Source of the DNA: a virus | Lineage: Duplodnaviria > Heunggongvirae > Uroviricota > Caudoviricetes | Length of the DNA: 11,115 bases | Reading direction: 5' to 3' (one strand) | Virus record (IMG/VR): IMGVR_UViG_2923302340_000003 | In this document: positions 1-11,115 of the stretch, piece by piece | How the letters are laid out: every line of letters begins with the position of its first letter | Numbering within the stretch: position 1 is the first letter of the stretch | Position numbers and translations under genes: made by a program | Notes under the pieces: model-generated | Told to the model about the DNA's origin: nothing | Databases searched by the model: none | What the model saw: only the letters and a program-made list of their open reading frames with translations

Positions 1-762
1 ATGTGTTGTAAAATCAGTCGAAGCCTAACAAGTGTGAATGACCTTTTAACCATGACGCAAGTGTTCAATGTTTACTGTGATGAGTCCTGCCATTTAGAAA
101 ATGATGGTCAAAAAGCAATGGTGCTCGGGGCTGTTTGGTGTCCTCTCAATAAGAGGTTTGGTATTGCTAATCGAATACGAGAGATAAAGCTCAAACATGG
201 CTTGGACCCACGTTTTGAAGTCAAATGGACTAAGGTTGGGGCTTCTAAAATTGAGTTTTATAAAGATTTGGTGGATTACTTCTTTGATGATGATGATCTT
301 CATTTCCGGGGATTGGTTATTCCTGACAAAACTCAGCTAAAGCATGATGATTTCGATCAAAGTCATGATGACTGGTACTATAAAATGTATTTTGTCATGT
401 TGAAAACTATTTTTGAGCCAGGAAGTCAATATAGAGTCTTTATTGATATAAAAGATACTCTTGGTCATGAGAAAATACTCAAGTTACATGATGTATTATG
501 TAACAATGCATATGATTTCTCTAGGAAAACAATTTCTAATATTAAGAGAATTAATTCTCATGAAGCTGAGCAATTGCAACTTGCTGATTTATTAATAGGT
601 GCCCTTAGTTATATGCATAGAGGTTTGAATGAAAGTAAGCCAAAACTTTTATTAATTAACAGGATAAGAGAAAGGAGCGGCTATAATCTAACCCAAAATA
701 CTTTGCTTCGAGAGTTAAAGTTTAATCTAATGATCTGGCAATCTAATGGGGGATGTCGATGA
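1..762 (+). CDS. DUF3800-like protein, AT-rich accessory gene. ORF is open to the window edge; the likely true start is ATG at 52 (MTQVFNVYCDES...), otherwise the gene is 5'-partial
   Basis: Long ORF in an AT-rich block. A hydrophobic-Y-C-D-E-S motif sits a few residues after the Met at 52, matching my recollection of the conserved N-terminal motif of DUF3800 proteins (not verified by search). Stop TGA at 760-762. No clear Shine-Dalgarno before 52. Confidence 0.6.
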   Translation: MCCKISRSLTSVNDLLTMTQVFNVYCDESCHLENDGQKAMVLGAVWCPLNKRFGIANRIREIKLKHGLDPRFEVKWTKVGASKIEFYKDLVDYFFDDDDLHFRGLVIPDKTQLKHDDFDQSHDDWYYKMYFVMLKTIFEPGSQYRVFIDIKDTLGHEKILKLHDVLCNNAYDFSRKTISNIKRINSHEAEQLQLADLLIGALSYMHRGLNESKPKLLLINRIRERSGYNLTQNTLLRELKFNLMIWQSNGGCR

Positions 763-1244
763 GTCCGGTTTGGCTACCCAAGCAAATTTTATTAGAACAC
801 TATCAAGGTGAGTGGGAGGCCTACTTTGATAGTGTTTATCAAGCATTCCACCGCGATTTCGTTTTATCTAAACCAGTTTTTCGTGGCGTTCGATTAGGAT
901 TGAAACGTCATCCAGAATATGAAGGTAAATCAGCCACATTCTGGCATATGATTAGCACTGGAAATGTAGAAAGTGAGAGAGTGCCGGATATTCGGCGCTG
1001 CGAAAGAATTAGTTGGCCTAAGCCTGTTATAGATAATAGTACCGATACCTGTTTGAAAGTCTGGGCTGAGCCCAAAGGTAAAAATAGACGTATCCACATT
1101 TGGTTTGAGGATGAGGGATATCTGGTGGTTTTAGATGATAGAGGCGATTTTATGCTTCCATGGACAGCGTTTTATATTGAACATAACCATCAACGAAAGA
1201 AATACAATAAGAGATGGGAAAGACACAATCATAACGGTATTTGA
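753..1244 (+). CDS. Hypothetical protein (163 aa), translationally coupled partner of the DUF3800-like gene
   Basis: ATG at 753 overlaps the upstream stop (760-762) by 10 nt. A GGGGG run at 747-751 serves as Shine-Dalgarno. No recognisable catalytic motif. Confidence 0.6.
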   Translation: MSMSPVWLPKQILLEHYQGEWEAYFDSVYQAFHRDFVLSKPVFRGVRLGLKRHPEYEGKSATFWHMISTGNVESERVPDIRRCERISWPKPVIDNSTDTCLKVWAEPKGKNRRIHIWFEDEGYLVVLDDRGDFMLPWTAFYIEHNHQRKKYNKRWERHNHNGI

Positions 1245-2094: not shown

Positions 2095-2632
2095 TCATTG
2101 ATGGTCTGATTTTTCCCATTCAGCCAAGGCGTTTAGTCCTGCCTCACTCCATGTGTCCTGTTCATCGGGACAATCGCTGGCAACATAGCATAGTTCACAA
2201 CGCAACATACGAATTGCCAGCCAGGCATTACCCCGCAAATTGTATTGTTCAAAGTAATGCTGCCCGTCGCAATCCTCAAGGCAGATAGCACCACCATCAA
2301 GAAATTGCACTTCCCAGCCTAATTCCCCGGCTGCATTCAGCACACGCTGCCGTATGTCATCGTCCGTTACTGGTGCAGGGATTTTACCGTCTCTGGCCTT
2401 AACTGCTTTCCAGAACTCGCCCCACGTCATTTCCAGCGTTCTTTCTGGCCACATTTCAGAAACTGCGTCTTTTCCCTGTGCTGGTGGGCTGTTCCGCTGC
2501 TCTGTCGCTTCCACATCGATTTTTTTACCGGACATAACCACTTCGCCTTTCTCGATCCAGTCGTAAACTGTCTGGCGGCTTACGCCTTTGTGTTTGGCGT
2601 ATTCAGCTTTACTCATCAACATGTGGCTCACC
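2095..2632 (-). CDS. DNA-binding protein with N-terminal HTH (Nu1/excisionase-like, SKAEYAKHKGVSRQTVYDWIEKGE) and C-terminal Cys cluster (CX3C...CX2C)
   Basis: ORF on the minus strand. GAGGTGA Shine-Dalgarno 5 nt before ATG at 2632. The track's 2661 start is probably an upstream extension. HTH assignment is from motif resemblance only. Confidence 0.6.
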
Positions 2633-2687
2633 TCATGCATATACGATAAAAATAATTTCATGCGGAAAAGGAATGCGTTGTGGATAT

Positions 2688-3245: not shown

Positions 3246-3263
3246 CCGGGAAAAATCCCGGCC
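3229..3263 (-). terminator. Intrinsic terminator-like hairpin just downstream of the PerC-like gene
   Basis: GGCCGGG (3244-3250) and CCCGGCC (3257-3263) form a 7-bp perfect GC stem with a 6-nt loop. On the minus strand it is followed by TTATTGCATTTCATT. Confidence 0.5.
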
Positions 3264-3267
3264 TCCG

Positions 3268-3555
3268 TCACTGACTGCAATTTTTCGATCCAGGATATTT
3301 CCTGAATGCCTTACCATTGGGCTGATGTAATCCCATTCCGGCATGTGCCCGGCTGATGGTTTCGCGCATCTCCCCGAAATTATCCTGCTTTGCTGGTGGG
3401 CGTGCTGCCTTGCGGATACATTCCGCACGGCGCTTTGCCGCCTGTTCCCGTGCCTTGTCACCGTTCGCCAGCATAATGACCTCAGCCCACCGTTCCGCCG
3501 CTCTCCGGTACAGACCACGCGCTTCCAGTGCTTCCGCTTTGCTGTCGTGAATCAT
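3268..3555 (-). CDS. PerC-family-like transcriptional regulator (95 aa)
   Basis: The N-terminal motif AEALEARGLYRRAAERW resembles what I recall of PerC/Pch-type regulators. Start overlaps the stop of the upstream gene (ATGA). Family call is from memory, not searched. Confidence 0.5.
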   Translation of the reverse strand: MIHDSKAEALEARGLYRRAAERWAEVIMLANGDKAREQAAKRRAECIRKAARPPAKQDNFGEMRETISRAHAGMGLHQPNGKAFRKYPGSKNCSQ

Positions 3556-4094
3556 GCGCCTGTTTTCTCCTTTGCTGCCCGGCGCTGACGTTTGCGCTTC
3601 TCATTCAGCGCCACCAGCCGCGTTTCTGCGTCCTGTTGTTCCTGTGGTGTCACCTCGCCGCACGGCTGGCCTTTCAGGTCGTAGCGTACCCCACCAGCCA
3701 TTAAGGCGCGGTAATAGCGCGGACACTGCGCATAAGATGCCAGCGTCGCACGTAATGCCCCTGGCCCGAATGCCAGCCCCCTGACGGCGAGATCCTGCAT
3801 CAGGTCGTCGAATATCCCCACCTTAAGCGGCTTCGGTGCTTCCCGGCTGAATAATTCAGGCCACAACTCAGTGAGGCGGTTAACGCGCCTGCGGTTTTTG
3901 TGCTGGCGTTTGGTCATATGCCGCCACGGTGTCGCCCCTGTGGGCTTCTGCTGCGCTTTCTGGTTACCGGGCATCACTTTATGCGCCGATGTGGTTTTAT
4001 CCTGCTCCTGCGCCGCCTGCGTCGTTTTCTGCGGCGTGCCGTAAATGCCTTTAGGTTTTCTGTTAATGGTCAGCTTAGTCATGCTTTGCCCCAT
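3552..4094 (-). CDS. ProQ/FinO-domain RNA-binding protein with a basic N-terminal extension; true start may be the second ATG at 4082
   Basis: The segment LWPELFSREAPKPLKVGIFDDL...LRATLASYAQCPRYYRALMAGGVRYDLKGQPCGEV aligns by eye with the E. coli ProQ N-terminal domain (FPHCF...RPLKIGIFQDL...RVDLDGNPCGEL). Confidence 0.8.
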   Translation of the reverse strand: MGQSMTKLTINRKPKGIYGTPQKTTQAAQEQDKTTSAHKVMPGNQKAQQKPTGATPWRHMTKRQHKNRRRVNRLTELWPELFSREAPKPLKVGIFDDLMQDLAVRGLAFGPGALRATLASYAQCPRYYRALMAGGVRYDLKGQPCGEVTPQEQQDAETRLVALNEKRKRQRRAAKEKTGA

Positions 4095-4175
4095 CGTTTT
4101 TACTGATTGCTACGTTGCCCAACGGCACTGACACAACATTCTGTTTTCATTTTTAACATTCCTGATTTTTTAATT

Positions 4176-4560
4176 CCTCACCTGCTGCACAGTGAGAATT
4201 TATGAAGTTAATAACAATATGATTTTAAATGTATTTTTAAGTACTCACTTTTTAATCCTTATATATACGCAAAAGTGAGGTAAATAGTTAAGTTTTAGTT
4301 AATATCTTGCATGGTGTGTTTTTTAACCTACCTGTTATTTTATTACCTCATTTCTATTAACTCACCATTCCTCACTTTTGTTCCTCACTTTTTATTATTC
4401 TTGTTCTGCTCCTCAGTCGTTTTCTTTATTGTTGTAATCTGTTGTTTTGCAATGTGTTTTTAACTCCTCACTTTTTGACCTATATACAGGTGAGAAAGTG
4501 AGGAAAACAGGGATGATTTTTAAATATTCCCTGCCCCCTCACTTTTACGCCTCACTTTTT
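4176..4560. repeat. Iteron array 1 (probable replication origin): CCTCACTTTT repeats in an AT-rich region immediately downstream of the replication gene
   Basis: Direct copies at 4244, 4370, 4383, 4466, 4537 and 4550. Inverted copies AAAGTGAGG at 4272-4280 and 4495-4503. Partial copies at 4176, 4346 and 4361. The last copy abuts the rep stop codon. Confidence 0.65.
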
Positions 4561-5971
4561 ACAGTGGGCGCACATCATCACCGTCAATAGCGATTACGCC
4601 GTCACCTTCCAGCTTGTACAGCCAGCGCCGGAAGTTTTTCATCTCATACCCCAGCTTTTTCATGTCATCGCGCAACAACGGAATAGTGCATTTATCTCCG
4701 CGTTGCGTGCGTGAACGGATACAGCCCCATAGTGCGGCGTGATTCTCCGTCTTGTTCCCGGCTTCCTCGATGCGCTCCAGTTCAACTGGCGGACGGGGCT
4801 TATCCTCCAGCACCAACGACGTGATTAACTCCCCGCCTTCATCCTTGAAAAGCTCAACCTCGCGCAAATCGCAAGCCATTTCTTTCAGTTCCTCCGCATC
4901 CTTCATCTTGGTACATGCGATAACCAGGGCTTCACTGCCTGCACCTTCACGGCGTATCCGGTACTCTGCATCCAGTGCTGCACGAAACGCACTGGAACCG
5001 CGCGCACCCTTTGTTTCATCCTTGCCGGAATGGTGAATTACCAGCACTGTAGCGCCTGTACGCCGTTTCAGTTCGTCACATCCATGGACAAATGCCCCCA
5101 TATCCCGCGCATCATTTTCATCGCTGCCACCAAAGCAACGCGCCAGAGTATCCAGAATAATCATGCGTACAGGTTTACCCGTTTCCTGCTCAACCTGTCG
5201 GGCAGCAATAACCATTTCATCAACATCACTCGGTGCGGCCGGAAAAATTGGACGATTTACCAGGTACAGATTTTTCACCTGCTCACTGTTCACCAGTTCC
5301 CATGCCTTGATACGACGAGGAACACCGATCCCCCCCTCACCAACGACATACATCACCGCACCATGTACAACCCTGCGACCTCCCCACGGGATACCGGTAG
5401 CAACATGACACGCCCACGAACACGCAAGGAACGACTTATAAGAACCGCTCGCACCGTATGTGCTACATAGCGAATTAGCCGGAATCACACCCTTAACCAC
5501 ATAGCTAAGCTGTGAATCGTATCCTTCCGATCCAATGCTCATTGGTAGCGTGGTTTTTCGCTGGCTGTATTGCTCGTCAGTAAGCATTTCTTCGCGCTCT
5601 GCCTGTTCGCGGATCCGTTGCAGGTAATCGCGCCAGTTCTCCGGCTCCCGGTCGGTGATGCCTTTGTATAATTTCGCCTCCTGTACGCCAGCCAGTGCCA
5701 GTTTTTCAGCGATAGCATTGATCTGGATTGGTTCGATCTCCCCCGCGAGATAGACACGCGCAAAGCGGCGTTCATCGTCGACAATGCGGATATTCGCCAG
5801 GTCTGCCAGTTGCTTTGGCCCCAGGTAAACAGGTGGTACGTTATCGCCGTGTTTTCGTCCTTCGCTTTCAATCCAGTGTTGAGCATGGGCGTAAGCATCC
5901 GTCCCGGCAAAAATGATTACCTCAGTGAATTTATCCTTCGGCTGATATTTCAAACTCGGTGCGTTTTTCAC
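4559..5971 (-). CDS. Replication protein: N-terminal TOPRIM-like region fused to a RecA-fold (RepA/DnaB-like) ATPase; putative primase/helicase
   Basis: Walker A GASGSYKS and Walker B-like MIILDTL are present. N-terminal acidic motifs (FAGTD, IVDDE) suggest TOPRIM. The start is directly adjacent to the upstream stop. Iterons lie immediately downstream. Confidence 0.8.
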   Translation of the reverse strand: MKNAPSLKYQPKDKFTEVIIFAGTDAYAHAQHWIESEGRKHGDNVPPVYLGPKQLADLANIRIVDDERRFARVYLAGEIEPIQINAIAEKLALAGVQEAKLYKGITDREPENWRDYLQRIREQAEREEMLTDEQYSQRKTTLPMSIGSEGYDSQLSYVVKGVIPANSLCSTYGASGSYKSFLACSWACHVATGIPWGGRRVVHGAVMYVVGEGGIGVPRRIKAWELVNSEQVKNLYLVNRPIFPAAPSDVDEMVIAARQVEQETGKPVRMIILDTLARCFGGSDENDARDMGAFVHGCDELKRRTGATVLVIHHSGKDETKGARGSSAFRAALDAEYRIRREGAGSEALVIACTKMKDAEELKEMACDLREVELFKDEGGELITSLVLEDKPRPPVELERIEEAGNKTENHAALWGCIRSRTQRGDKCTIPLLRDDMKKLGYEMKNFRRWLYKLEGDGVIAIDGDDVRPL

Positions 5972-6258
5972 TTCTTACCTCCCGCAACCAACATTGCCCG
6001 GATTTTTTTAATATTCGTGGCTGCACGTCTTGCCACTGCCTGTTGTTTGTTTTCAACCAGAATAAAATCACGCTCAAACTGACGGCGCGGCATTACGCAG
6101 TCATATTCGTAAGCCTCACGGCGGTAGGTGATATTGCCTGGCGTAACGTGACGAATAACCACTCGTCCCCCACGTCTGGTGTCGCGGTAAATATCGCCGT
6201 GTCTGATTTCAGGCCGAGCGGGGCCGCTGGCAGTAAAGCCAGAATTTTTCTTTTTCAT
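5968..6258 (-). CDS. Hypothetical protein (96 aa), coupled to the replication gene
   Basis: AGGAAA Shine-Dalgarno upstream of ATG at 6258. Its stop is directly adjacent to the rep start codon. Confidence 0.55.
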   Translation of the reverse strand: MKKKNSGFTASGPARPEIRHGDIYRDTRRGGRVVIRHVTPGNITYRREAYEYDCVMPRRQFERDFILVENKQQAVARRAATNIKKIRAMLVAGGKK

Positions 6259-6262
6259 GGTT

Positions 6263-6463
6263 TTATTTTCCTGTCAGCAGTTCCGGTTTTATTTCCGCAC
6301 GAATACAAAGTTCAGAAAAAAATTCAGGAGAACCAACAATCTCATTACTTTTCAGTCGGCATTGTGATTTCACTTTCCCTTTATCCAGGTAAACCAGTAC
6401 GCGTCCGGTGAAATCATCTGGCACACTCAGGGTAATTGTCATTGTTGCTTGCTGATTATCCAT
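6263..6463 (-). CDS. Hypothetical small protein (66 aa) with one copy of an FTG-x-LV...G-x-V-x-S...RL module
   Basis: 8-nt overlap with the upstream gene. Shares a motif with the 121-aa protein encoded at 6456..6821. Confidence 0.55.
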   Translation of the reverse strand: MDNQQATMTITLSVPDDFTGRVLVYLDKGKVKSQCRLKSNEIVGSPEFFSELCIRAEIKPELLTGK

Positions 6464-6821
6464 GATTCACCCCCTGAATAACCTGATAACCGCAACTGGT
6501 CAGCAATTCGATAAATTCCGGCAGTGTGCCGAAACAGCAATCATCACGCATACGTTCGCGGGATACCTCAACGCCGTTTTCGTAGTGACTCACCATGCGT
6601 CCAGTAAAATGCAGATCATCATCGTGATGGCACGTTGACGGCTTAATCAGTCGCGCACGTTCTGCCAGCTCCAGCAATGCTTCAACACTTCCGGCAATTG
6701 CACCATCCGGCAGGCGATAATTACTTACCACGCGTCCATTCTCCACATTGACCAGTAGCTGCCCGGTAAATTTCTCATCAAACTGAATGCTGTTAAGGTC
6801 AGAAATTGACAGGTTATGCAT
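6456..6821 (-). CDS. Hypothetical protein (121 aa) with two tandem copies of the same module (FTGQLLVNVENGRVVSNYRL and FTGRMVSHYENGVEVSRER)
   Basis: Strong AGGAGGTG Shine-Dalgarno 5 nt upstream of ATG at 6821. 8-nt overlaps with both neighbouring genes. Confidence 0.6.
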   Translation of the reverse strand: MHNLSISDLNSIQFDEKFTGQLLVNVENGRVVSNYRLPDGAIAGSVEALLELAERARLIKPSTCHHDDDLHFTGRMVSHYENGVEVSRERMRDDCCFGTLPEFIELLTSCGYQVIQGVNHG

Positions 6822-7179
6822 GGTGCACCTCCTGGCGAATACGGGCGGCGAATACCATCACACAGCCATCAGGAGATTGCTGGCGTGCTTCCTGTTCGCT
6901 GGTGGCCTCGATGTGAATTACGCGCGGTTGTGCCGTGCTCAGGGCGATAAAACGCCAGATAAAATTGTTCTCGCATTTCTGAATAAACAGCGTGTTTTCT
7001 TCGCGCCCTTTCCATGTTGCCGAGATATAGCCCATGTCATTGAGCATCTCGCAGGCATCCACCAGCGTATCAGCGGCTACGTGTACAGTGTTTTTACCGT
7101 CAGCCATGCAATCACGGTGCACCGCCAGGAAGGTGTATATAAATTTAGGGTGAGTTTGGGTATGCTGTGTTCCAGCCAT
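6814..7179 (-). CDS. Hypothetical protein (121 aa, MAGTQHTQTHPKFIYTF...), first gene of the replication operon
   Basis: GGAG Shine-Dalgarno 9-12 nt upstream of ATG at 7179. The track's 335-aa ORF (to 7821) is an artefactual upstream extension that crosses the divergent promoter and the opposite-strand gene. Confidence 0.55.
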   Translation of the reverse strand: MAGTQHTQTHPKFIYTFLAVHRDCMADGKNTVHVAADTLVDACEMLNDMGYISATWKGREENTLFIQKCENNFIWRFIALSTAQPRVIHIEATSEQEARQQSPDGCVMVFAARIRQEVHHA

Positions 7180-7253
7180 AATCGTTACTCCAGTTAACGG
7201 TTTGGTTAGACGCCCTGCATGTGTTGCGAGCACTGCGGGGCGTCGCTCTTTTA

Positions 7254-7305
7254 GGTGTATTTCACCTTTGCTTTTTAATTTACTCACTGGTGAAATACAC
7301 TTCAA
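7254..7305. promoter_or_regulatory. Operator-like perfect 12-bp inverted repeat GTGTATTTCACC-N22-GGTGAAATACAC overlapping a candidate minus-strand sigma70 promoter
   Basis: Left arm 7254-7265, right arm 7288-7299. Candidate minus-strand promoter: -35 TTGAAG (reverse complement of 7299-7304) and -10 TAAATT (reverse complement of 7276-7281) with 17-bp spacing. TATACT at 7331-7336 may be the -10 for the plus-strand gene. Confidence 0.5.
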
Positions 7306-7366
7306 GCCTTTTTTTATCATTTTTTTTGCGTATACTGACATACACCAATTTTTAGGAGATCCAGAA

Positions 7367-7546
7367 ATGGCAACTGGTGCAAAGAACGCAAAATCACAAA
7401 TGACAACTGTCAGAATCCCACATGAAGTAATGGATGATATTGAGCAACTTAAAGAACCTGGCGAAAGTACCGCTGGTTTTTTAGTTACTGCCGCAAAAGG
7501 CGAGATCAAACGCCGCCAGCGTCGCAAGGCCAAAGAGCAGGAGTAG
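7367..7546 (+). CDS. Small protein (59 aa, MATGAKNAKSQMTTVRIPHEVMDDIEQLKEPGE...) divergent from the replication operon; candidate regulator
   Basis: AGGAG Shine-Dalgarno 7-11 nt upstream of ATG at 7367. Basic C-terminal tail. The track ORF 7202..7546 has an implausible N-terminal extension. Confidence 0.5.
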   Translation: MATGAKNAKSQMTTVRIPHEVMDDIEQLKEPGESTAGFLVTAAKGEIKRRQRRKAKEQE

Positions 7547-7767
7547 TTGATCAGCACCGGACGACCAGAAAAAATTGCATCAGTCGCGCCACCAGCAGTA
7601 TTTTTTGCTTTCCGGACAGCGTGGCCAACGGCATTTTGCAGCAAAATATTCTGCATTTCTGGCGTGCTGTAGAAACGGTGATCAGCGCCTTCACATTGAA
7701 CGAACTTGTCGCTAAAATTCACCCACATAGCAAACATCGCGGTGCTGTAGGTAATTCGTTCACAAAG

Positions 7768-7798
7768 GCGCTCCGGCAACGGGGCGCTTTTTCTTTTT
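7768..7798 (+). terminator. Strong rho-independent terminator (plus strand), possibly weakly bidirectional
   Basis: GCGCTCCG (7768-7775) pairs with CGGGGCGC (7780-7787) around a GCAA tetraloop. This is an 8-bp stem with one G-U pair, followed by TTTTTCTTTTT (7788-7798). Confidence 0.7.
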
Positions 7799-7813
7799 GT
7801 AACGGTCAGAGCG

Positions 7814-8614
7814 TTACACATGGCTGTTTTCCTCCATGCGACGGGCTAACCAACGCTGCGAAAGACGAATTAATTCAGCTTTCCGCTGGTGGTAGTCCTG
7901 GCCTAACTCAATCAGCGTGATATTGCTCTGCTCAAGGTAAGAAAGGTGCTCAAGCTGCAACGTGCTCATGTGGTCGCGTGGTTCGCCTGTGATGCCGTTC
8001 GCCTGCGCCCACTGTTTTGCAGTCATGCCACCCAGCACGATACGCGCCAGCATATTGGCTTCCGTGGTGTAGTGGTGCTGGAACGTGTTTTTACCCAGTT
8101 CAGCCCGGTACGCCTCCAGCGCGGCGCACATCGGCTTAAAGTAACTGGCAACGGTGATACGGGCTTTCAGTTCCCGGCGTAACGCTGCGGAACGAACAGG
8201 CGCTACCTTGTGTAGCTCCTCCTCGCATTTGATGAAGTACTGACGAACGGCGCGGCCCTGTTCGGTGCGTTCGACCATCGCCAGTTCTTTCGCCATGTTC
8301 ACGGTAATGATGTACTCAAGAGCTGTTTGCTGGCGAGATTTTGCGCTCACCGGATCGGGTCGGCTCAAATATTCAACAACCTCATAATCCACGCCTTCCG
8401 TGAAGCCGTATTCTTCAATGCGCCCCTTGATCCACGAACGGAAAACGCGACCTACACCTAACGCCTTATGCAACGCTCTGGCGCTAACAATATTGGTTTC
8501 ACACCCGCCAATAATGCCGGAAATAACCGGGATAATTTCGCCGAAATTTTGCAGATTCTGGTTTTCAGGCCGAACGAAGCCCTGCCCCTGTACGGGCGTT
8601 TTTCGCAGTTTCAT
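7814..8614 (-). CDS. Phage antirepressor-like protein (AntA-type N-terminal domain)
   Basis: The N-terminal region SARALHKALGVGRVFRSWIKGRIEEYGFTEGVDYEV resembles the AntA antirepressor domain pattern, recalled from memory. 266-aa ORF. Confidence 0.65.
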   Translation of the reverse strand: MKLRKTPVQGQGFVRPENQNLQNFGEIIPVISGIIGGCETNIVSARALHKALGVGRVFRSWIKGRIEEYGFTEGVDYEVVEYLSRPDPVSAKSRQQTALEYIITVNMAKELAMVERTEQGRAVRQYFIKCEEELHKVAPVRSAALRRELKARITVASYFKPMCAALEAYRAELGKNTFQHHYTTEANMLARIVLGGMTAKQWAQANGITGEPRDHMSTLQLEHLSYLEQSNITLIELGQDYHQRKAELIRLSQRWLARRMEENSHV

Positions 8615-8691: not shown

Positions 8692-8919
8692 TCAGGCTGA
8701 TGTGTTTCGGCGTTCTTCCAGCCAGCGATTAATCTCTACCGCATCGAATGCAGTGCTTTTCTCACCCAGTTTGATGGGCTTAGGCATCTTCCCGCTACGC
8801 ACCCAACGATCGAGCGTTGATAAGCTGGTACCCAGCAATTCAGCCAGGCGATAGCGGCGGATATAGCCAGTTGCAGGGATTGCGGTTTGAAGTATTGGTT
8901 GGTTTTTCATATGCCCCAT
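8692..8919 (-). CDS. alpA: AlpA-family phage transcriptional regulator (about 72-75 aa)
   Basis: Motif RYRLAELLGTSLSTLDRWVRSGKMPKPIKLGEKSTAFDAVEINRWL matches the AlpA/Vis-type pattern. The track ORF start at 9003 is an extension. Likely start is ATG at 8919 or 8910. Confidence 0.75.
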   Translation of the reverse strand: MGHMKNQPILQTAIPATGYIRRYRLAELLGTSLSTLDRWVRSGKMPKPIKLGEKSTAFDAVEINRWLEERRNTSA

Positions 8920-9022: not shown

Positions 9023-9805
9023 CTATCTAAAACGCTCTCGCCAGCTTTTCCAAGTGTTCTTATCTGGTTGTGGGATTACAATGCCTTTTTGAGCACCTAT
9101 TTGTGCAATTTTTTTATTTAACTTGTTAGGCGGCAAAGATATTATCTCATTGTCTGTTAATCCGGCAATTCTTAATAATCCATATATCATTTTAAATTGA
9201 TGTATTGTTAATCTTGGTAACTTGTGATTTTCTTTTTTTATAGTGTTGTTTATGGAGTAAATTGGAAATCCATTTGTTATTGATTTATAAAGGTTGTCAA
9301 TGTGCTCTCTGGTTATTAATAATGAATCAGGTGTAATCTTAATGTTGCCGCTTGTTTTTGCATGGCATGAAAAAATAAATGTGGGATTCGCAGTGCGACG
9401 TGAAAGCGGTATGGATGTATTCATAGAGATAGTTTTGTTTCTTACTATAGTCTCTTGAATATCAAAAACTCCAGAAACCTTTGCCTCAAAAATAACACCA
9501 TTTTCTTTTATTTCATCACTATATTCATGAATAATTATGCCAAGAGAGGAAATTTCTTTTTTGATGAGAAAAGAAATAAAATCAATATAGTCTTCATCCT
9601 TTGGCCATGTAAAATCACGATAACCAAAATACCCCTCACAGTAAGCATTTTTTATTTTTGTGGCAAAATTAATTCTGTTAATATCCTGCCAATGCCATAA
9701 ATCATCTATTTCACATTCTAAAATTTGAGCTGCTCTATCTAAAGAGCAGAATTCTAATGGAGGTAATTGTTTTTTTTGCCATATTGTTTCATTAATATTT
9801 GTCAT
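9023..9805 (-). CDS. AT-rich orphan hypothetical protein (260 aa) inserted between int and alpA; candidate cargo gene
   Basis: Uninterrupted ORF in a block that is clearly more AT-rich than the flanking int and alpA genes. Asn/Ile/Lys-rich. No recognisable motif. Confidence 0.65.
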   Translation of the reverse strand: MTNINETIWQKKQLPPLEFCSLDRAAQILECEIDDLWHWQDINRINFATKIKNAYCEGYFGYRDFTWPKDEDYIDFISFLIKKEISSLGIIIHEYSDEIKENGVIFEAKVSGVFDIQETIVRNKTISMNTSIPLSRRTANPTFIFSCHAKTSGNIKITPDSLLITREHIDNLYKSITNGFPIYSINNTIKKENHKLPRLTIHQFKMIYGLLRIAGLTDNEIISLPPNKLNKKIAQIGAQKGIVIPQPDKNTWKSWRERFR

Positions 9806-9861
9806 GATTGCACTACCGTTATGAAAAAATATATTCGTTAATGAATTAGCCTTAATGTCTA

Positions 9862-11115
9862 TTATTTATTAGATTGCGTGATGTCAGAACATATCATGTT
9901 TTCTAAATTCACCAGCAAATCAGTCCACTGTGCCAGCGCCGCTTTGCGCTCATCAAAATATTGATGGCGGTTATAAATGCCCTCTACGCCTTTTATGCGG
10001 TGGTTAAGGCATCGTTCAGCAACGATCGGGTCAACTCCCAATGCTGCTAAATGTGTTCGTGCTGTTCGCCGGAAGTCGTGAATTGTAAAGTTGGGGACGT
10101 TCGGCATTTCTGCTCTGACTTTTGCCAATGCAACAGGAAGGGTGCTTTCCTGGATGTGAGGGATCATTCTGTGCTGCATTTTTCTGGCAGGTAATACCCA
10201 TGCGCTATTGCATGAAAATGTGTGCAATTCTCGCAACCATTCTATGGTCGCTGGTGGTAATGGTATGTCGATAGCATCGCCATTTTTAGTTCGTTGTTCT
10301 GGTAGATGCCAAATCGCGCCATCTAAGTCGAATTCATCCCACCTGGCGGCGCATAATTCCATTTTTCTGACACACAATGCTAAGAGCAACTTAAAGGTTA
10401 ATTCGTTCTGGCGGCTGAATCCTTTGGCTTTACGCATGGCCTGAAAAAATTGGATTAATTCGTCACGGTTCAGCCAGCGATCACGAGATAATTCTTTCCC
10501 ACCAGCATCTGATACTTCAAAAGCTGAGCAGGGGTTAACCTCCAAAGCAAGGCGTTTAATACCGTAGTCAAATATTCGACGTGTCCACCGAAGAACGTCA
10601 GTAGCAATTGTTGGAGCGCCTCTATCAACAATGCTTTTAAGCATGGCATCAATATGGCGTGGTTTTACATCTTCAACCTTCATGTGGCCTATGGCAGGAT
10701 TTATGTCTTTATCAATGCGCCTGCGGAGAATATCTGGGTGTTTCCATCGGGGAAGTATTTGCCGTGCAAAGTATTCGGCGGCAAGTTCAGAAACATGCAG
10801 CGCGTTTTTTTCAGCTTCTATTTTTGCCAGTGCTTCGGCTTTACGCTGCTGTTTTTCTGCGGCTACGTCATATCCCAAAGCAACTCGTGCGGAAAGTTCT
10901 TTTGCCAGTTCCCTGGCTTTTGATAACGATAATTCAGAATATGAACCAATAAGCATGGCACGAGATTTTCCCGCCAGTTTATATCGAAACCGCCATGTCG
11001 GGGATCTATCCACCTCTCTATACCGGAGATATAGCCCACCACCATCAGCACGACCTTCGAAATGTTCTCCGGCTTTTATCCATGCGCGGATCTGCATATC
11101 TGTGAGTTTTGGCAT
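9862..11115 (-). CDS. int: P4-type tyrosine integrase (417 aa), apparently full length
   Basis: N-terminus MPKLTDMQIRAW...GGGLYLRY is typical of P4-family integrases. C-terminal catalytic motifs HDFRRTARTHL and EGIYNRHQY (Tyr nucleophile) are present. Confidence 0.9.
   Translation of the reverse strand: MPKLTDMQIRAWIKAGEHFEGRADGGGLYLRYREVDRSPTWRFRYKLAGKSRAMLIGSYSELSLSKARELAKELSARVALGYDVAAEKQQRKAEALAKIEAEKNALHVSELAAEYFARQILPRWKHPDILRRRIDKDINPAIGHMKVEDVKPRHIDAMLKSIVDRGAPTIATDVLRWTRRIFDYGIKRLALEVNPCSAFEVSDAGGKELSRDRWLNRDELIQFFQAMRKAKGFSRQNELTFKLLLALCVRKMELCAARWDEFDLDGAIWHLPEQRTKNGDAIDIPLPPATIEWLRELHTFSCNSAWVLPARKMQHRMIPHIQESTLPVALAKVRAEMPNVPNFTIHDFRRTARTHLAALGVDPIVAERCLNHRIKGVEGIYNRHQYFDERKAALAQWTDLLVNLENMICSDITQSNK

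Follow-up and report, generated by a model that had tools for sequence, protein, structure and literature searches.

A probable RecA-fold initiator-helicase and its adjacent iteron region in a Gram-negative PICI of Escherichia coli

Gene content of the island and the rep gene

Here we describe a window of 11,115 nucleotides, the whole stretch of viral DNA that was analysed (IMG/VR record IMGVR_UViG_2923302340_000003). It carries a replication gene, rep, beside an AT-rich region of repeats. The features are listed below, numbered from the first letter of the window.

1..1244, plus strand: accessory cargo, a candidate two-gene anti-phage system, PDC-M04A (DUF3800) and PDC-M04B (PADLOC)
4095..4558, no strand: putative replication origin, 464 bp, AT-rich (GC 0.33), with eight AAAGTGAGG iterons in both orientations (repeat scan)
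4559..5971, minus strand: rep, probable replication initiator-helicase of 470 aa (ORF listing and full-length phrog_2850 match)
4562..4771, minus strand: predicted C-terminal winged-helix domain, aa 401-470, proposed to read the iterons (AF2)
4847..5539, minus strand: RecA-fold AAA_25 (RepA/SF4-like) helicase core, aa ~145-375 (Pfam, 1g8y alignment, Foldseek)
5432..5455, minus strand: Walker A/P-loop GASGSYKS, aa 173-180 (translation)
5588..5971, minus strand: N-terminal module, aa 1-128, a four-stranded alpha/beta domain with a long linker helix (AF2)
5968..6258, minus strand: DUF4222 gene, translationally coupled to rep (Pfam DUF4222, E 1.4e-19; GTGA overlap)
8692..8910, minus strand: alpA-type HTH regulator/excisionase (Pfam Phage_AlpA, E 1.8e-8)
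9862..11115, minus strand: PICI tyrosine integrase of the P4-int type (Pfam Arm-DNA-bind_3, Phage_int_M, Phage_integrase)

Sequence comparison supports the assignment of this element to the Gram-negative PICIs, at yicC/dinD in E. coli, and not to the P4-like satellites. Over 85% of the window the sequence matches, at 97.5% identity, an island of E. coli A17 that sits between yicC and dinD. PICIs were recognised by the gene content given in PMC6092414, and the island is assigned here by its genes. These comprise an integrase at one end, alpA, a unidirectional operon and rep followed by the AT-rich iteron origin, and the window holds no phage structural or lysis genes. The order int-alpA-...-DUF4222-rep-ori-ProQ-PerC is that of published Gram-negative PICIs (PMC6092414) and of the EcCICFT073 locus, and the backbone is common to islands in ABU 83972, F9792 and EC5. 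The yicC-dinD island of ABU 83972 was considered as EcCICFT073 itself and rejected, EcCICFT073 lying between roxA and phoQ in CFT073.

The integrase shares 25% identity with P4 Int and adjoins yicC in related genomes, and PGAP calls a 219-nt CDS in A17 at the place equivalent to alpA. When all P4 proteins were compared with the window by tblastn, Int alone matched (E 3e-21). There was no match in the window for sid, delta, psu, alpha or epsilon, nor were such Pfam or PHROG families found there. The initial annotation had reported sid, delta and psu to be missing and had likened the element to a PICI more than to P4; both statements agree with the gene content, including the single direction of transcription. 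Rfam at the gathering threshold gave no RNA families in the window, which therefore has no P4-like C4 or isrK immunity RNA, and no tRNAs were found in it. The candidate anti-phage genes (PDC-M04A, E 8e-98; PDC-M04B, E 1e-73) have a GC content of 0.32-0.41 and sit at the far island end.

The 470-aa reading frame carrying GASGSYKS, first noted in the initial annotation, is real. It begins with a GTG codon preceded by a GGAGG Shine-Dalgarno sequence, and its start shares 4 nt (GTGA) with the stop of the DUF4222 gene before it. In all related islands, at six loci, DUF4222 lies directly upstream of the replication gene, whatever the helicase type. Rep matches phrog_2850 over its full length (PHROG; E 7e-221), and the same CDS is called by PGAP in E. 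coli A17 and F9792.

Judged from database sequences, the Rep family is abundant, already named, and a fairly frequent form of a known system type. Homologues at E<=1e-5 number 1666, the NCBI name is "helicase RepA family protein" (PHROG 2850), and of 5426 complete E. coli genomes 777 contain matching rep-ori DNA. In the PICI literature the protein in this slot is called 'Pri'. Our search of the literature brought up no experiments on Rep or its close relatives, nor any account of the N-terminal module or of a PICI Rep of the AAA_25 type. We also considered rep as a plasmid RepA gene and rejected this: tblastn against plasmids gave only 34 records, and the close ones are very large and have a DUF4222 neighbour, so they represent islands rather than RepA plasmids.

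Helicase core and N-terminal module of Rep

Rep contains three swappable modules: the N-terminal module, the RecA-fold helicase core and the C-terminal predicted winged helix. Pfam AAA_25 (PF13481) matches aa 150-319 with E 3.8e-44 and 151 bits against a gathering cutoff of 27. RSF1010 RepA (PDB 1g8y) is alignable to aa 155-322, with the Walker A, Walker B (ILDTL) and HHSGK motifs in register. Across 24 homologues, G173, S175, G176, S177, Y178, K179 and S180 are invariant, position 174 being Ala or Pro, and so are MIILDT with D274, HHSGK and RGSSAF. The core is 40% identical to phage 'DnaB-like' or primase-helicase proteins, and hhalign relates this region to the primase-helicase of Roseobacter phage CRP-406 with 99.9% probability. 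Foldseek with the Rep model returned T7 gp4 and Twinkle as the best full-length matches, then RadA/Rad51. These full-length matches are weak (E 2e-4, TM 0.24) because the RecA core is poorly modelled, with pLDDT <50 at aa 153-176 and 315-398 of the full-length AF2 model. Together, the Pfam match, the 1g8y alignment and Foldseek bear out the RecA fold proposed at the outset, and they support a core of the AAA_25/RepA type, not the SF3 type of D5 proteins and P4 alpha.

P4 alpha, like Rep, is an enterobacterial satellite replication protein made as one polypeptide in the order (primase-like)-(helicase)-(C-terminal origin-binding), the last of these being a predicted role in Rep. The proteins are otherwise as different as the initial annotation had supposed. 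Alpha is much larger, at 777 aa, and contains Zn_Ribbon_Prim, a canonical Toprim_3, D5_N, DUF5906 (SF3) and Pox_D5, none of which was matched in Rep; BLASTP found no similarity between the two (E 0.24). The domain search that the initial annotation had called for, made here with Pfam, gave AAA_25 and no P4 alpha architecture in Rep. P4 has octamer repeats in ori and crr, and its origin is not adjacent to the gene in the manner of the Rep origin. RSF1010 RepA is, like Rep, an AAA_25 protein in Pfam with a RecA fold, and the two have Walker A, Walker B and HH-S/A-K motifs in common. With its 279 aa RepA is a single-domain helicase that relies on other proteins for initiation (RepC) and priming (RepB'), whereas Rep has extra N- and C-terminal domains; the similarity between the two is remote (E 0.03).

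CRP-406 gp3, T7 gp4 and Twinkle have the same order as Rep, with a TOPRIM-type domain (in Rep a module that is plausibly TOPRIM-like), a linker helix and a RecA-fold helicase. CRP-406 gp3 is clearly homologous over the helicase and C-terminal region (30% identity, E 8e-39). Compared with these three proteins, Rep is without the zinc ribbon and ~100 primase-domain residues, and its N-terminal module has neither the Toprim profile match nor the conserved catalytic residues of phage TOPRIM primase-helicases.

The N-terminal 128 aa are predicted by AF2 to fold as beta-alpha-beta-alpha-beta-alpha-beta (pLDDT 82.5, pTM 0.76). Among 1.84 billion proteins, only 100 cluster representatives (50% identity clusters) match the module at E<=1e-3, nearly all at their N-terminus, and it is fused to four partner cores: AAA_25, D5_N/DUF5906, DUF927 and VapE-like. 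The D5-type PICI 'primases', such as EcCICFT073 Pri, carry a homologous module of ~125 aa, and they occupy the same island slot with DUF4222 upstream and the origin directly downstream. They differ in having D5_N, DUF5906 (SF3) and Pox_D5 in place of AAA_25, another C-terminal domain, and iterons unlike those beside Rep. The module of Rep is 49% identical to that of EcCICFT073 Pri and 92% identical to that of the EC5 D5-type protein, where similarity stops abruptly at residue 129. Because the module is common to the D5_N/DUF5906/Pox_D5 PICI 'primases' and the EC5 break falls at 129, Rep is a mosaic, drawn from a single pool of PICI replication modules that recombine with one another. The suggestion of a possibly distinct replicon lineage was in this respect overstated, all the more so for a family that is abundant and already named.

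The initial annotation had described acidic TOPRIM-like motifs in this region. The TOPRIM-like nature of the module is plausible from the predicted fold, which is where the evidence lies; the acidic positions are not conserved. A BLASTP extension against the CRP-406 Zn-ribbon/Toprim_3/AAA_25 protein pairs TDAYAHA with TEGYADA and AGEIEP with AGDNDP, placing D25, E78 and E80 of Rep opposite TEG and DxD of phage Toprim_3. This alignment was not recovered by hhalign (probability 0.4% against the CRP-406 protein), which gave 0.3% against P4 alpha. No Toprim Pfam family was found at E<=10 in 22 family members, a PDB profile search of the module did not find the TOPRIM link, and the N-terminal model had no informative match among viral structures in Foldseek.

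These data bear on whether Rep is a true primase-helicase, the N-terminal module being a minimal active TOPRIM primase and the protein a stripped-down T7 gp4 or P4 alpha. The acidic residues of the BLASTP extension would fit this, as would the position of the module, which is that of Toprim_3 before AAA_25 in CRP-406 and before D5_N in P4 alpha. E111 is nearly invariant among the 22 members, no primase gene other than rep was seen in the window, and independence of the helicase type would be natural for a primase and is consistent with module swapping. Yet A22-G23 is invariant at the site of the conserved TOPRIM Glu, position 78 is acidic in only 13 of the 22 members, and positions 25 and 80 are variable. 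Rep has neither a zinc ribbon nor the N-terminal subdomain that belongs to a DnaG-type RNA polymerase domain, which leaves ~110 residues. Moreover, EcCICFT073 Pri is non-acidic at the positions matching 25, 78 and 80 (AGYLAP), and its replicon works, the EcCICFT073 pri-ori segment supporting plasmid replication (PMC6092414). We therefore regard a true primase-helicase as unlikely, though it is the strongest of the alternatives to an initiator-helicase.

The probable ancestor of the module is the TOPRIM domain in a phage primase of the Zn-ribbon/TOPRIM/helicase kind, and the zinc ribbon and conserved catalytic residues would have been lost during descent. Since the module occurs with four different cores and its C-terminal end is precisely where recombination falls, its task is most likely independent of the helicase. 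This could be the task of an adaptor or oligomerisation collar rather than primer synthesis, an adaptor possibly contacting the host priming machinery or the DUF4222 protein. A more speculative reading, less likely than not, is that the N-terminal ~125 residues are either an undescribed, satellite-restricted adaptor or the smallest known TOPRIM primase. As an adaptor, a degenerate TOPRIM could plug any self-loading helicase into one common partner. Candidates for this partner would be the DUF4222 protein, which is co-transcribed, a factor from the helper phage, and the host's DnaG or replisome.

C-terminal domain, iteron origin and module exchange

In the full-length AF2 model the C-terminal domain consists of three helices (409-423, 430-439 and 447-456) and two beta strands (460-463 and 466-469), with pLDDT 79-89. 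Pfam and PDB profile searches of this domain returned noise alone (MCM5_C 0.078, HTH_36 0.1). The predicted winged helix and the iteron origin were both missing from the initial annotation.

The AAAGTGAGG iterons of the origin lie at 4243, 4272, 4370, 4383, 4466, 4495, 4537 and 4550. Within the origin are two modules of ~77 bp (4220-4296 and 4443-4519), each an inverted pair of iterons around TATATA. In the whole window AAAGTGAGG was observed 11 times against 2.5 expected, a count reached in 0 of 200 shuffles, and 8 of the 11 matches fall within the 316 bp (4243-4558) directly 3' of the rep stop codon. Repeat families D1 and I1-I16 were detected in the origin region; a promoter and terminator scan around rep and ori was uninformative. 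The layout agrees with the published design of PICI origins (PMC6092414).

Comparison between islands indicates that iterons and rep travel together. F9792 has a 99%-identical rep followed by the same iteron array, despite a different integrase and att site, and the array is missing from islands of the same backbone with a D5-type core. In an Enterobacter homologue whose C-terminus is 40-45% identical, the downstream repeats are of the AAATGCGC type, not AAAGTGAGG; in these two iteron types, the repeat appears to vary with the Rep C-terminus. Against E. coli EC5, window positions 4099-5592 are replaced, while the flanks at 3254-4098 and 5593-6425 are 95-96% identical. In these alignments the origin, predicted winged helix and helicase core thus exchange as one cassette within a conserved backbone.

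The C-terminal predicted winged helix and the iteron origin lead us to view Rep as the initiator. In our assessment Rep is probably the initiator-helicase of a Gram-negative PICI, and with the adjacent 464-bp iteron region rep likely forms a self-contained rep-ori cassette.

Alternatively, Rep could be a helicase alone, of the RSF1010 RepA type, with the iterons bound by another island protein, for example the DUF4222 product or that of a small upstream ORF, which would recruit the helicase. The dependence of RSF1010 RepA on RepC is a precedent for this, rep always has the DUF4222 gene immediately before it and coupled to it, and no DNA-binding family was recognised in the C-terminal domain. 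However, where the origin is exchanged, DUF4222 and the genes upstream of it remain part of the backbone (5593-6425 is 95% identical in EC5), and it is the segment for aa 127-470 with which the origin co-varies. AF2 confidently predicts a winged-helix-like topology for the C-terminal ~70 residues, which differ among homologues with different downstream repeats, and the SaPI Reps are a precedent for a fused initiator-helicase (PMC9371898). A helicase served by another initiator is thus quite improbable. That Rep is a RecA/RadA-like or defence-associated ATPase carried as cargo, as a weak NCBIfam RadA match (E 1.7e-5, far below cutoff) and the Rad51/RadA structural matches might suggest, is hardly credible for a protein that sits in the PICI backbone replication slot, interchangeable with D5-type 'primases', is followed directly by an iteron origin, has no PADLOC match and has phage primase-helicases as its best sequence relatives.

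Proposed initiation of replication and its wider meaning

For Rep as an initiator-helicase, we propose that induction would lead to transcription of the leftward int-alpA-...-DUF4222-rep operon, with rep translated by coupling to DUF4222 through the observed overlap. The predicted winged helix would then bind the AAAGTGAGG iterons just downstream of the rep stop codon; we infer this binding from the predicted fold, its position, the co-inheritance of rep and iterons, and the different repeats found beside a divergent C-terminus. A Rep ring may next assemble and load itself where AT-rich DNA separates the iteron sets, and the AAA_25 motor would unwind the origin, in the 5'-3' direction if it behaves as RSF1010 RepA and T7 gp4 do. 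The excised island would finally be copied by host primase and polymerase.

By analogy, the closest functional counterpart of Rep would be the self-loading Rep of SaPIs. SaPI Reps are self-loading helicases of different superfamilies in which a C-terminal winged helix reads iterons immediately downstream of rep (PMC9371898). As is proposed for Rep, with its predicted winged helix, SaPI Rep1, Rep2 and PriRep5 are satellite ring helicases that double as initiators; the two systems also share iterons just downstream of rep, in two sets flanking an AT-rich centre, and islands that differ in the superfamily of the helicase core (PMC9371898). The motors are different: those of SaPI Reps are AAA+ SF3 or SF6/MCM and move 3'-5', whereas Rep has a RecA-fold AAA_25 (SF4-like) core. 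There is no sequence similarity between Rep and the SaPI Reps, and the N-terminal module of Rep is unrelated to the SaPI primase.

Many E. coli strains carry PICIs, which move virulence and anti-phage genes, and their replication proteins are usually all called "primase". The island described here indicates that one backbone can hold a RecA-fold (RepA/AAA_25) initiator-helicase instead of the D5/SF3 type. The exchanged unit comprises the origin, the predicted DNA-binding domain and the motor, so that specificity is kept together, while the small N-terminal module is constant across motor types and its role evidently general. Such module exchange offers a testable picture of how satellite replicons diversify, and different rep-ori cassettes could prevent cross-talk among co-resident islands. 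The practical value is modest and lies in better annotation: "DNA primase" is probably wrong for the Rep family, and knowledge of this family should benefit tools for satellite detection, which depend on primase profiles.

Island layout and the replication gene

E. coli A17 carries, between yicC and dinD, a chromosomal island that matches 85% of the window's length at 97.5% identity, and the islands of ABU 83972, F9792 and EC5 also have long stretches in common with the window. Read leftward, the genes encode a P4-type tyrosine integrase, an AlpA-type HTH protein, an AntA-like protein, several small ORFs, a DUF4222 protein and Rep; beyond rep lie an AT-rich repeat region, ProQ/FinO, PerC, an HTH protein and a low-GC two-gene cargo. 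This order is the one published for Gram-negative PICIs, namely int, alpA and pri/rep, with an origin of two iteron sets either side of an AT-rich region immediately 3' of the replication gene (PMC6092414). When all P4 proteins were searched against the window by tblastn, Int was the only match, and sid, delta, psu, epsilon and alpha were not found. The initial annotation, which had noted the absence of sid, delta and psu and called the element PICI-like rather than P4, was correct on both points.

Features of the window
1-1244, plus strand: PDC-M04, a PADLOC candidate defence system of two overlapping low-GC genes, PDC-M04A (DUF3800 protein, PADLOC E 8e-98) and PDC-M04B (PADLOC E 1e-73)
2095-2661, minus strand: 188-aa HTH protein
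3268-4094, minus strand: ProQ/FinO-family RNA chaperone and PerC-family activator, immediately past the origin
4559-5971, minus strand: rep, 470-aa ORF, with Walker A GASGSYKS at aa 173-180
5968-6258, minus strand: DUF4222 gene
6814-7821, minus strand: 335-aa ORF
9023-9805, minus strand: 260-aa ORF adjoining the integrase

Judged by its sequence, rep is a real, conserved gene, and the ORF and Walker A motif first read from the DNA hold. Its GTG start codon lies eight bases downstream of GGAGG and shares the sequence GTGA with the stop codon of the preceding DUF4222 gene, an overlap that couples the two genes translationally. Over its full length Rep matches PHROG 2850 ("unknown function"; E 7e-221), PGAP names the equivalent CDS in near-identical islands "helicase RepA family protein", and the 1666 homologues at E<=1e-5 come chiefly from E. 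coli, Salmonella, Shigella, E. albertii and Enterobacter. The family is common in E. coli: rep-ori DNA was matched in 777 of 5426 complete genomes, in most cases with 80-90% identity across the core, and among the matches listed the rep-matching gene carries the same RepA-family name. In plasmid records it is rare. One Klebsiella pneumoniae record labelled plasmid (CP018459, 16,971 bp) has a homologue with 55% identity over aa 83-455, and may represent either an island excised as a circle or a true plasmid that uses a Rep homologue.

The island backbone is mosaic at several slots. A17, the closest relative, differs at 9188-9961 and 14553-15389 of its locus; it has an extra 774-nt gene between ProQ and the origin that is absent from the window, and a GIY-YIG nuclease gene where the window has the AntA-like gene. 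The ProQ/FinO and PerC genes remain with the backbone where the rep-ori cassette differs. The PDC-M04 pair forms the accessory end adjoining dinD, and the island appears to carry this uncharacterised anti-phage candidate as cargo. The 188-aa HTH protein weakly matches a terminase small subunit (phrog_57, E 3.6e-8) as well as excisionase/Cox-like families, and could serve the island in redirecting packaging or in regulation. The 335-aa ORF, which has no family match, is probably spurious; it overlaps a stretch annotated in related islands as small genes (an Icd-like cell-division inhibitor, YlcI/YnfO and other small hypotheticals). The 260-aa ORF is very low in GC (about 0.32) and has no match in Pfam, PHROG, NCBIfam or PADLOC; A17 keeps a counterpart annotated 'hypothetical protein'.

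Helicase core, C-terminal domain and origin

Pfam places a single domain in Rep, AAA_25 (aa 150-319, E 3.8e-44). Among solved structures, the RSF1010 RepA helicase alone shows sequence similarity (E 0.03), in an alignment spanning Walker A, Walker B (ILDTL) and the HHSGK motif. The AF2 model of the whole protein is only moderate (mean pLDDT 66.7, core partly <50); in the PDB it best matches T7 gp4 (455 aligned columns) and human Twinkle, then RadA/Rad51. Among phage proteins, the nearest relatives are AAA_25 primase-helicases, with 30-40% identity. Taken together, these matches identify the motor as a RecA-fold, SF4-like helicase, whereas P4 alpha has an SF3 helicase of D5 type; they support the earlier reading of a RecA-fold rather than a P4 alpha-type helicase. 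Residues ~400-470 are confidently predicted as helix-helix-helix-strand-strand (pLDDT 79-89), a winged-helix topology, and gave no significant family or PDB match in profile searches.

The 464 bp from the rep stop codon to the ProQ/FinO gene have a GC of 0.33. The motif AAAGTGAGG has eight copies in 4243-4558, seven of them exact, in both orientations; its whole-window count is 11 against 2.5 expected, a number reached in none of 200 shuffles. Two ~77-bp modules, each containing an inverted iteron pair around TATATA, flank a tandem iteron pair. The F9792 island, which has a different integrase and adjoins a tRNA-Gly gene, carries a rep 99% identical to that of the window with the same array directly downstream, and the motif is missing from islands with D5-type cores. 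In Enterobacter cloacae, the Rep homologue is 63% identical overall and 40-45% in the C-terminal domain, and the repeats downstream of it are of the AAATGCGC/AAGTGCGA type instead. Because the iterons are linked to rep and the repeats differ beside the divergent C-terminus, we infer from linkage and two-point covariation that the C-terminal domain may be the iteron reader.

SaPI Reps are self-loading ring helicases that are also initiators; their C-terminal winged helix binds iterons immediately downstream of rep, and their motors vary by island between superfamilies SF3 and SF6 (PMC9371898). By analogy, this family would be the best functional counterpart of Rep, which would follow the same logic with a RecA-fold motor instead. 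With such a motor, unwinding would be expected to run 5'-3', as in RSF1010 RepA and T7 gp4, and host DnaG is assumed by default to make the primers.

The N-terminal module and cassette exchange

Modelled alone, aa 1-128 of Rep give a pLDDT of 82.5 and pTM of 0.76; in a 145-residue model, a beta-alpha-beta-alpha-beta-alpha-beta sandwich precedes a long helix (114-139). An exhaustive HMMER search with aa 1-145 over 1.84 billion proteins found only 100 cluster representatives at E<=1e-3, nearly all matching at their N-terminus. Among 22 diverse aligned members, A4, G23, A26, L55 and G77 are invariant, and P5, E17, I20, A22, P47, L50, A92 and E111 nearly so.

The initial annotation had seen acidic TOPRIM-like motifs here. 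The predicted fold is compatible, which is suggestive and not decisive. In BLASTP against gp3 of Roseobacter phage CRP-406 (Zn_Ribbon_Prim, Toprim_3 at aa 171-255, AAA_25), the strong helicase alignment runs on leftwards (TDAYAHA with TEGYADA, AGEIEP with AGDNDP), so that D25, E78 and E80 would fall at the TOPRIM Glu and DxD positions. Against the motifs, no member of the 22 matched a Toprim family at E<=10, strand 1 always ends in A-G where TOPRIM has E-G, and the residue that follows G77, at position 78, is acidic in no more than 13 members. In hhalign the leftward extension is absent with the module and full-length profiles alike, and the module scores 0.3% probability against P4 alpha; a PDB profile search returned nothing relevant. 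EcCICFT073 Pri has AGYLAP at AGEIEP, and its replicon works experimentally (PMC6092414). The module is probably a TOPRIM derivative, because it occupies the place of Toprim_3 in the CRP-406 protein and P4 alpha and its fold is compatible. Primase activity is unlikely, since the module has neither a zinc ribbon nor a conserved metal site and lacks about another 100 residues of a primase.

Longer proteins with the module have differing cores.

Cores joined to the N-terminal module
D5_N, DUF5906 and Pox_D5: P0124, P0189, P0218
D5_N and DUF5906 only: P0216
VapE-like: P0126
DUF927: P0127, P0136, P0166, P0199, P0200

The ABU 83972 island, also at yicC-dinD, has a D5-type replication protein with a 49% identical module, and EcCICFT073 Pri (between roxA and phoQ in CFT073) likewise joins the module to a D5-type core. 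In E. coli EC5 (NZ_CP060969, 2574-4379), a 601-aa D5_N/DUF5906/Pox_D5 protein annotated 'DNA primase family protein' shares 92% identity with Rep over residues 1-129 (window 5588-5971) and is unrelated beyond; the pair shows a sharp recombination junction inside the gene, where one helicase superfamily gives way to another. Compared as DNA, the window matches EC5 at 95-96% over 3254-4098 and 5593-6425, and 4099-5592 is replaced. What is exchanged is thus the origin together with the C-terminal domain and motor (aa 127-470), with the breakpoint at the module boundary. AAA_25-type homologues are mosaic among themselves at this same boundary. In six related island loci (L001-L004, L008, L009) the replication gene is always immediately preceded by the DUF4222 gene, irrespective of helicase type, and the recombination breakpoint against ABU 83972 falls inside the DUF4222 gene, at window ~6116. 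These comparisons place Rep in a single pool of PICI replication genes that recombine with one another; the module's presence on D5-type, VapE-like and DUF927 cores and its 92% identity in EC5 contradict the suggestion of a distinct replicon lineage.

The PICI literature names this slot "primase" without telling types apart, and in the papers searched we found no description of an AAA_25 variant or of a common N-terminal module. Since the module occurs irrespective of motor type and origin, a common, helicase-independent role is favoured; it may act as a collar, linker or adaptor, perhaps to the priming machinery or the always-adjacent DUF4222 protein. This conserved module is the more intriguing part of the finding.
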